Positions 45,973 through 46,398 of a stretch of 64,000 nt of DNA are shown here, piece after piece. The notes under the pieces were generated by a model, which saw nothing but the letters and a program-made list of their open reading frames with translations, had not been told where the DNA came from and made no database searches. This DNA is from a virus, in IMG/VR virus record IMGVR_UViG_2912391263_000005, positions 1-64,000 of that record; one strand, written 5' to 3'. Within the stretch, counting starts at the first letter, position 1, and the number at the start of each line of letters is the position of its first letter. The position numbers and the translations under genes were made by a program.

Positions 45973-46398
45973 GCCTAGCGAAAGTTCGCTTGATAAGTTA
46001 TAGATGAGTATTGATTTGTAGTGTTTCCAAATCAAAAGGGTACAGAGCCACATGAAATATGTTGTCCTCTGCAGCGTCAGGATGGGAATCCATACCATGG
46101 AGATTCGGAGATCTGTGAGGGAATACTTACGTGGTTAATATGTCGGTTGTGTTGGAAGTAGTAATGGTCATAGTGGGTAAATTGACTGAATTCTTATATG
46201 AGAAAATGAAACCAACAAGAAGATAGGGTTATTTATACAGAATTGGGGATCTTTTCTGGAAAAGTAATCGGACAATGCGAGATTCGTACGGTCTTTTTTA
46301 AATTTCTCTTAAAAAAATGGCATCGAATGGGTTGGGTGATTGATAAGCAATGAATCATAGACTGATATAGAATAAAAAATGATTCTATTTATCTTTTT
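45973..46398 (+). ncRNA. candidate structured ncRNA, copy A of a paralogous ORF-free element
   Basis: About 70% identical to 55635-56103, with indels not in multiples of 3. Conserved blocks CTGCAGCGTC...GGGAATCC...ATCGGACAA.GCG...GTACGGTC. Ends in hairpin 46367-46386 plus T-run. Confidence 0.45.

Follow-up and report, generated by a model that had tools for sequence, protein, structure and literature searches.

Does the 64,000-nucleotide (nt) viral stretch analysed here (IMG/VR record IMGVR_UViG_2912391263_000005, positions 1 to 64,000; hereafter the window) encode a large structured RNA, and if so, what could such an RNA do? The question is raised by two paralogous elements free of open reading frames (ORFs), copy A and copy B, each of which lies upstream of a small-protein gene. 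We found that these elements very probably represent a genuine structured RNA family on the + strand, of which about ten lineages could be aligned, and which heads a conjugation and adhesin operon in integrative conjugative elements (ICEs). By analogy with known systems, we put the probability that the RNA is a cis-acting processive antiterminator or leader RNA for this operon at about one half.

A blastn comparison of the two copies showed that positions 45968-46316 (copy A) and 55629-55985 (copy B) share 73.97% identity across 365 columns. This supports the paralogy put forward in an earlier inspection of the letters (the sequence-only reading), but not the whole-length alignment at about 70% identity that it described, as the copies diverge past 46316 and 55985 and the homology ends there, before the terminal hairpins. 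At the other end, the conserved structure begins about 40 nt 5′ of the start proposed earlier, with the 5′ strand of helix P0 (GCTAGG) at 45935-45940 and 55603-55608. On the basis of the alignment and the pair counts, the ORF-free structured core measures 396 nt in copy A (type A, 45935-46330, +) and 428 nt in copy B (type B, 55603-56030, +), where a second 3′ unit extends up to 56030. The blocks CTGCAGCGTC, ATCGGACAAyGCG and GTACGGTC are common to both copies, as had been noted, whereas only two of the three GGGAAT motifs claimed to be shared are present in copy A. The gaps between the copies are 5, 13, 1 and 2 nt long, the 5-nt gap being AGGAT after CTGCAGCGTC, and no ORF of at least 50 amino acids (aa) overlaps 45351-46623 or 55526-56161 on either strand. 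No third copy was found within the window by blastn or by a covariance-model search.

Near-identical copies of types A and B (98-100%) were found in many assemblies by exact look-ups of the downstream proteins (90 aa after copy A, 205 aa after copy B), and the source labels of these carriers are E. faecium, E. faecalis and E. gallinarum; E. gallinarum NBRC 100675 carries both types. Diverged copies were reached via relatives of the 90-aa protein and, chiefly, of a 123-aa protein encoded upstream of copy B. About ten lineages from Enterococcus genomes and metagenomes were thereby distinguished, namely A, B (three variants), C (L032), D (L031), E (L033-35), F (L056-58), G (L059/60), H (L061), I (L062) and J (L063-66). 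Exact-pattern scans returned 12 loci in metagenomes (two genuine close copies and ten chance matches in coding sequence), only E. gallinarum with both types plus one chance match in genome contigs, and, with two patterns, chance matches only in viral contigs. A blastn search with copy A against 72,556 plasmids (PLSDB) and 50,697 phage records (INPHARED) gave no match. The RNA family seems to be confined to Enterococcus.

A secondary structure model was built by hand and with RNAalifold from 13 sequences, for which an L-INS-i alignment and a tool alignment (A5) were used. The model comprises 12 helices with 82 pairs, and 96.4% of the 1022 cells in alignment A5 are standard-paired, compared to 40-47% in controls in which the 3′ partners were slid by 1-3 columns. 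Both sides are changed in 14 pairs, compared to 2-6 with slid partners, the covariation score reaches 0.236 versus about 0.08 in the controls, and 0/500 shuffles matched the observed values, which amounts to strong support that nevertheless stays below an R-scape-grade test, as the structure was derived from the very sequences tested and the sample is small. Compensatory changes occur in Ha (UA/CG/UG and GC/AU), P3 (CG/UA), Hc and S2 (UA/CG in each), M1 (CG/UA at two positions, AU/GC at one) and S0 (CG/UG/UA). No reading frame is kept across the lineages, given the indels (1, 2, 5 and 13 nt between copies A and B) and the domain swaps; a consistent frame in additional copies had been named as one result that would speak against an RNA, and none appeared. 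Hence, the non-coding nature and the structured RNA family suggested by the sequence-only reading both hold.

The RNA is opened by P0, in which GCTAGG pairs with CCTAGC to close a variable AT-rich loop, and P2 and P3 are long-range helices placed around the hairpins Ha, Hb and Hc and a middle domain that is closed by M1. The 3′ domain consists of S0, Sx, S1, the 14-bp S2 and the variable hairpin S3, and the blocks GUAGUAACGG, GGGGAAAUGG and UAAUCGGAC are conserved as single strands. In copy A, the helices of the 5′ part are P0 (45935-40/45974-79), P2 (45984-94/46129-39), P3 (45995-98/46125-28), Ha (45999-46005/46014-20), Hb (46021-26/46038-43) and M1 (46065-73/46115-22), followed in the 3′ part by S0 (46141-44/46155-58), S1 (46191-97/46215-21), S2 (46228-42/46254-68) and S3 (46276-80/46284-88). 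The corresponding positions in copy B are P0 (55603-08/55635-40), P2 (55645-55/55797-807), P3 (55656-59/55793-96), Ha (55660-66/55675-81), Hb (55682-87/55699-704), Hc (55714-22/55730-38) and M1 (55739-47/55783-90), then S0 (55809-11/55821-24), S1 (55857-63/55881-87) and S2 (55894-908/55921-35). The minimum free energy fold of copy B as a single sequence reproduces P0, Ha, Hc, M1 and S2. A covariance model (R1) of the 3′ domain with 34 pairs recovers both window copies, with 170.6 bits at 46129-46305 and 190.4 bits at 55797-55972, as well as the known homologues.

The periphery of the RNA varies between lineages while the helices around it are kept. In type E, the entire middle domain is deleted and the flanking helices are retained; in types G, I and J, the middle domain is a different one, self-complementary as well and closed by the same M1 columns, and in types C and D an additional hairpin is present at the junction of P3. 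Type D (L031:5150-5390) has three tandem copies of the 3′ unit, which consists of AATCGrAyG, a hairpin and TCCTTTTTT in this order; other types have two, and copy A, devoid of the second 3′ unit found in other lineages, has one. For the conserved U-run 3′ of S3, an alternative pairing partner exists in an AAGAG-type strand downstream, with covariation between the two (CTCTT/AAGAG, TCCTT/AAGGA and CCTT/AAGG).

The strand and the chemistry were judged from the kinds of pairs that are conserved. The paired cells include 195 G.U versus 8 A.C, with G.U accounting for 19% of paired cells, several positions are G.U in 10-13 of the 13 sequences, and the same helices read on the - strand give pairing in only 77% of cells. 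The excess of G.U over A.C and the lower pairing on the - strand therefore place the structure on the + strand and favour an RNA over a DNA structure. Single-sequence energies discriminate neither strand nor chemistry, the z-scores for copy B being -2.31 on the + strand, -1.85 on the - strand and -2.71 when folded as DNA. A Frpo-like single-stranded DNA (ssDNA) promoter had been considered and was dropped, as the structure is on the coding-sense strand.

In a search of the whole window against Rfam 15, only a group II intron (53108-53401) and a tRNA (39476-39549) pass the gathering thresholds, and at E<=10 the two RNA regions gave sub-threshold chance matches only, in agreement with the earlier view that no known RNA family is recognisable. 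The family is thus undescribed; large antitermination RNAs of Gram-positive conjugative elements have already been described (PMC8191782, PMC11658703), so that the kind of RNA is probably not new.

In all lineages other than A, the RNA comes as the second feature of an ICE, counted from the left end and after the gene of the 123-aa protein, and the module has the order left-end hairpin-terminator, 123-aa gene, RNA, two or three intrinsic terminators and a long same-strand operon with more terminators. The operon begins with YopX-like and/or 90-aa genes, followed by LPXTG adhesins (with thioester, SpaA and TQ domains) and a LysM protein, and past the window an FtsK-like protein and a Rep_trans relaxase are encoded on the same strand, which therefore assigns the element to the ICE conjugation superfamily of Tn916, ICESt3 and ICEBs1. 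In at least 11 independent insertions, the similarity starts about 80 bp 5′ of the 123-aa gene, at GGCrrTTTAwACT, where the flanks diverge, and one genome (GCA_002140865.1, L056-58) holds three identical left ends beside unrelated chromosomal genes. The insertion sites (L056-L059, L061-L066) adjoin phosphotransferase system (PTS), glycosidase, UxaC, XdhC and other genes; since many of them are unrelated, the target specificity of the ICE is low.

The left terminus of the copy-B ICE (55076-55153, +) contains a hairpin (55084-55135; -29.9 kcal/mol) whose stem measures about 20 bp, followed by UUUUUUA and the ribosome-binding site (RBS) of the 123-aa gene. Between ICE variants, covariation is seen in this stem (ACTTTGAAGTG/CATTTCAAAGT versus ACTCTATAGTGC/GCACCATAGAGT), and the hairpin could be an insulator or attenuator terminator, or a site for recombination or a recombinase. 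The 123-aa gene itself (55154-55525, +), the first gene of the ICE, lies directly 5′ of the RNA in all non-A lineages, and this synteny makes its product a candidate partner protein. Its predicted model (predicted local distance difference test, pLDDT, 87.5) shows a beta-beta-alpha-beta arrangement and a helix-turn-helix (HTH)-like helical part; Foldseek against the PDB gave nothing below E=0.07, no Pfam or PHROG family matched, and only 15 cluster representatives were found among 1.84 billion proteins. Between the stop codon of this gene and the RNA, a conserved block (AAAGATACTTACCTCAT / AAAGATACTTAC(C/T)TCAT; 55563-55579 in the window) is present in all non-A lineages; it might serve as a site for a protein, belong to the RNA or represent a weak -35 region.

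The RNA is followed by a series of terminators. Ter1 (GGCTTTGT...ACAAAGGCTTTTTTATTTT) is carried by other lineages and is absent from both window copies. Ter2 after copy A is the hairpin ATAGAAT/ATTCTAT with a U-tract (46365-46398, +; -6.1 kcal/mol), a weak terminator that is homologous to Ter2 elsewhere, and in Ter2 after copy B the stem is lengthened to 12 bp, again with a U-tract (56059-56103, +; -12.2 kcal/mol). Both have identical arms, ATAGAAT...ATTCTAT followed by TTTAyyTTTT, the longer stem of copy B being due to an insertion; they are therefore homologous copies of one terminator, and the different stems that had been taken as covariation-like support for an RNA ending there reflect homology only. 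Ter3 after copy A is a terminator-like hairpin, GAATCAG..CTGAGTTTTTC (46506-46538, +), at a position conserved in all lineages, and Ter3 after copy B is a hairpin between an A-run and a U-run (56132-56163; -10.0 kcal/mol on the + strand), which the scan lists on the - strand and which is potentially bidirectional. Within the operon, an intrinsic terminator lies directly 5′ of the LPXTG/thioester adhesin gene (47720-47747, +; -15.1 kcal/mol), and a sister terminator sharing ACGTCGTTATCA... with it lies 3′ of the LysM gene (62813-62840, +; -11.9 kcal/mol); judging from L053, the next adhesin gene comes after it.

As to the start of transcription, the sole -10-like hexamer (TAAAAT or TATAAA in several lineages) is 2-4 nt from helix P0, and a start from it would remove the covarying 5′ strand of P0, so that transcription should begin further upstream. 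No convincing conserved -35 was found near P0, and the promoter scan lists nothing there. An earlier candidate for a -35 box, TTGCTAGG, was dropped, since its GCTAGG is the covarying partner of CCTAGC in P0.

The RNA lies in a layout of terminator, small gene, large RNA and terminator-studded operon, which is the layout of the conAn and canT systems and is the ground for proposing an antiterminator or leader RNA. According to this proposal, the RNA would be transcribed as the leader of the conjugation and adhesin operon, and the nascent RNA would fold and act in cis on its own polymerase, possibly with assistance from the 123-aa protein. The polymerase might thereby become resistant to the terminators that follow, a processive antitermination as for conAn2 of pLS20 and pCF10 and canT of Tn916. 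The absence of Ter1 from copies A and B and the remodelling of Ter2 in copy B fit an action that is independent of the terminator sequence. The proposal also agrees with the core holding no strand that would consistently pair with Ter1, and with the place of the -10-like hexamer beside P0.

In the conAn system, a small-protein gene (ConAn1) followed by the conAn2 RNA of 260-600 nt is found at the start of terminator-rich conjugation operons, and conAn2 alone overrides nearby terminators, whereas action at a distance needs ConAn1 (PMC8191782). The system is present in pLS20, pCF10, pAD1 and other Gram-positive conjugative plasmids, with components that show nearly no sequence conservation between plasmids (PMC8191782); known ConAn1 proteins share 13-33% mutual identity and verified conAn2 regions 30-40%. 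In pLS20, an attenuator terminator lies directly 5′ of conAn1, and a structural 'zipper' attenuator has been described in the conjugation leader (PMC13401043). Like conAn2, the enterococcal RNA is a large non-coding region right after a small gene at the start of a long conjugation operon, with many intrinsic terminators and with surface adhesins early on (a thioester adhesin is also encoded early in the pLS20 operon); as in pLS20, a terminator lies just 5′ of the small gene, and the core lengths of 396 and 428 nt fall within the conAn2 size range. Unlike in conAn, the carrier is not a MOBP plasmid but a chromosomal ICE that encodes a Rep_trans relaxase, and terminators are directly behind the enterococcal RNA. 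A conAn2 RNA is defined by a conAn1 gene (ConAn1/PrgR/TraE, Pfam pXO2-34 PF17362) right before it near the start of the conjugation operon; the 123-aa gene takes this place in the non-A lineages and has no Pfam match, and copy A has no such gene. Some 9-mers are shared with conAn2 of pCF10 (AATAGCTAGG, AGTACGGTC and AATAATCGGA); they are scattered, not colinear and no commoner than in shuffles, and were discarded, and the same holds for 9-mers shared with conAn2 of pLS20 or the canT region, which are neither colinear nor in excess over shuffles.

In the second system, that of Tn916, the insulator terminator T1 is overridden by canT, an RNA of 452 nt that acts in cis (PMC11658703). The enterococcal RNA resembles it in its comparable size and complex predicted fold, and in belonging to an ICE of the same conjugation superfamily, with an FtsK-like protein and a MobT/Rep_trans relaxase; orientation-specific action and joint work with an insulator terminator near the end of the element would be further traits in common. 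However, canT is located at the other end of Tn916, between orf8 and xis, and is upstream of T1 only in the excised circle, whereas the enterococcal RNA and its terminators lie side by side at the left end while the ICE is integrated. Other cis-acting structured RNAs that make RNA polymerase terminator-resistant, namely the Bacillus eps-associated RNA (EAR) and the put RNAs of phage HK022 (PMC8191782, PMC11658703), are far smaller and have another genetic context, and neither enterococcal copy has an Rfam match at or near the gathering score. At best, therefore, the enterococcal RNA would work like conAn or canT, and it is not to be filed as a member of either.

Several observations weigh against an antiterminator of this kind. 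No similarity to conAn2 of pCF10 or pLS20 or to canT was detected by sequence or by covariance model: R1 gave no match on pCF10 9126-10014, on pLS20 3083-3465 or on either strand of L069 (the canT region of Tn916), and blastn against PLSDB, including pCF10 with its Tn916 copy, gave no match to the conAn2 or canT regions. Comparisons of the 123-aa protein with PrgR and with ConAn1 of pLS20 by BLAST, hhalign and Pfam showed no similarity, a weak negative given that PrgR and pLS20 ConAn1 match no Pfam model themselves and that the identity among known ConAn1 proteins is as low as 13-33%, and the predicted model of PrgR (pLDDT 39) is too poor for a comparison of folds with the 123-aa protein. A great many E. 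faecium assemblies carry copy A (98-99% identity) but lack the 123-aa gene, so that this protein is not always needed in cis. Both terminators behind copy A are weak, and as a single sequence the + strand of copy A is no stabler than shuffled sequence (z +0.43). Since the RNA is on the same side as the terminators, external read-through would also be antiterminated unless the left-end hairpin blocks it, which is unlike canT. Finally, no sequences of the RNA and no entries for transcription start sites were found in the supplements of enterococcal transcriptome papers.

The RNA could instead be a signal-responsive leader, an attenuator or riboregulator in cis, which would bind a factor (a small ligand or a protein of the ICE or host, such as the HTH-like one of 123 aa) and decide on nearby terminators locally, with no processive resistance. 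We regard this as possible, if on the doubtful side: the positional evidence is the same as for an antiterminator, the covarying alternative pairing of the U-run after S3 could be the switch, and the pLS20 'zipper' attenuator is a precedent (PMC13401043). However, the RNA is followed by two or three separate terminators whose sequence differs among lineages, and additional terminators lie kilobases downstream, beyond a local switch. Further, the core holds no consistent complement to the 5′ arm of Ter1, the best duplexes falling at different core positions in each lineage, and Rfam gave no riboswitch family match.

It is also conceivable, although unlikely, that the RNA is not an antiterminator and represents a new class of ornate mobile-element RNA with its own biochemical role. 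Such an RNA might, for example, be a scaffold or form a ribonucleoprotein with the 123-aa protein for ICE excision, transfer or establishment, or might be catalytic. A role of this sort would be in keeping with the invariant G.U pairs, with the single-stranded blocks that are conserved and with a peripheral domain that can be swapped.

The hairpin and U-tract terminators behind both copies, the TAAAAT/TATAAA hexamer just 5′ of P0 in several lineages and the survival of copy A without the 123-aa gene would also be expected of a stand-alone trans-acting RNA that has its own promoter, ends at the first terminator and might control ICE maintenance, excision or host genes. We consider this decidedly unlikely, as a start 6-8 nt on from the hexamer would lose the 5′ strand of P0, a convincing conserved -35 is missing and the promoter scan is empty there; moreover, the RNA is always co-oriented with and directly 5′ of the operon, and two or three successive terminators exceed the need of a small-RNA gene. 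The RNA need not be a stand-alone transcript that ends at the terminal hairpin, as the sequence-only reading implied, and the position of P0 beside the sole -10-like hexamer, together with the place between the small gene and the terminator battery, points to a cis-acting leader.

Some features of the locus recall a single-strand origin (sso), that is, an ssDNA element or priming site used on the strand that is displaced or transferred when the ICE replicates by rolling circle and conjugates. Functional ssos exist in ICEs of this superfamily, such as ICEBs1 and Tn916, the displaced strand of which runs in the same sense as most mRNAs; the position and strand of the enterococcal element are compatible with this. 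The ICE has a Rep_trans (MobT-type) relaxase; known ssos (ssoA, ssoT and ssoU) are likewise strand-specific, non-coding and folded, and occur in mobile DNA with Rep_trans-type initiators. In addition, copy B folded with DNA parameters is stabler than shuffles, and the TAGCG of the element resembles the CS-6 motif of ssoA. An sso is nevertheless very improbable here. In place of a long rod-like hairpin, the element has a branched, G.U-rich fold of 12 short helices; its helices with G.U pairs, some of them kept in nearly all sequences, would be unstable as DNA; TAGCG lies inside helix P0, whereas RS_B and CS-6 of ssoA are in the terminal loop; and an sso gives no reason for an operon-leader position between the first gene and the operon-head terminators.

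A decayed coding remnant or functionless selfish repeat, similar in its copies through recent duplication only, would agree with the low stability of copy A and the restriction to Enterococcus but is scarcely credible, since no reading frame is retained across lineages, substitutions keep base pairs far above controls and the position is invariant in independent insertions.

The antitermination RNAs of Gram-positive conjugative elements are a recent finding (conAn2 in 2021, canT in 2024), and neither has a covariation-supported structure; the authors of the canT study abandoned structure prediction (PMC11658703). While conAn2 regions barely align, some ten diverged lineages of the enterococcal RNA can be aligned; a 12-helix model with compensatory changes is available, domains are swapped or deleted in nature, and a partner protein can be proposed. 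Should the RNA be an antiterminator, it would be the first of its kind with a testable, covariation-supported consensus architecture, and if it is not, it is an unexplained large structured RNA. As the host ICEs carry adhesins and spread among hospital pathogens (E. faecium, E. faecalis and E. gallinarum), how the transfer operons of these ICEs switch on is of practical interest.

The paralogous genes that the sequence-only reading had placed downstream of the two copies were also confirmed. The first genes after copy A (46709-47315, +) encode an 83-aa YopX-like fragment (46709-46960) and the 90-aa phrog_5149 protein (47043-47315), in the same order as in L008-L017, and copy B is followed by the gene of the 205-aa protein (56235-56852, +), the C-terminal domain of which is paralogous to the 90-aa protein. 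This domain of 81 aa is 83% identical between the two products, and both match phrog_5149. A close relative of the 205-aa protein, from the same 90%-identity cluster, is labelled 'Phi-29-like late activator' by one source. Further along the operon of copy A, the LPXTG/thioester adhesin is split into two ORFs (47749-51165 and 51176-52060, +), which correspond to a single ORF of 1427 aa in L008, and the adhesin gene is probably interrupted in the window strain.

The two modules are arranged in tandem in the window, with a group II intron between them. The intron (53108 to about 54950, +) has Rfam D1-D4 matches and a reverse transcriptase/maturase ORF (53546-54820) that ends about 250 bp 5′ of the left end of the copy-B ICE. 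The copy A module is similar to other genomes from 45579 on, a position within the 3′ end of the gene for a multi-HTH_3 regulator; this gene is truncated in the window and is intact (303 aa; L008:760-1671) and next to lepA in most carriers. Copy A, which has no upstream 123-aa gene, is a derivative in which the 123-aa partner and the first terminator have been replaced by the multi-HTH regulator and an 18-aa ORF. The truncated 3′ end of the regulator has a terminator at 45727-45758, and the 18-aa ORF (MIRNKKCWLKVALLAVFF; 45792-45848, +), with the strong RBS AAGGAGG, lies just 3′ of this remnant and its terminator. The encoded peptide, with a basic N-terminus and a hydrophobic C-terminus, resembles pheromone, inhibitor or SHP-type signalling peptides. 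The remainder of the window upstream (1-41388) is prophage-like by its ORF layout alone, with an ORF at 1-1146 (-), ORFs of structural size up to about 39.3 kb and the tRNA at 39476-39549, and an insertion sequence with an rve transposase is located at 40552-41388.

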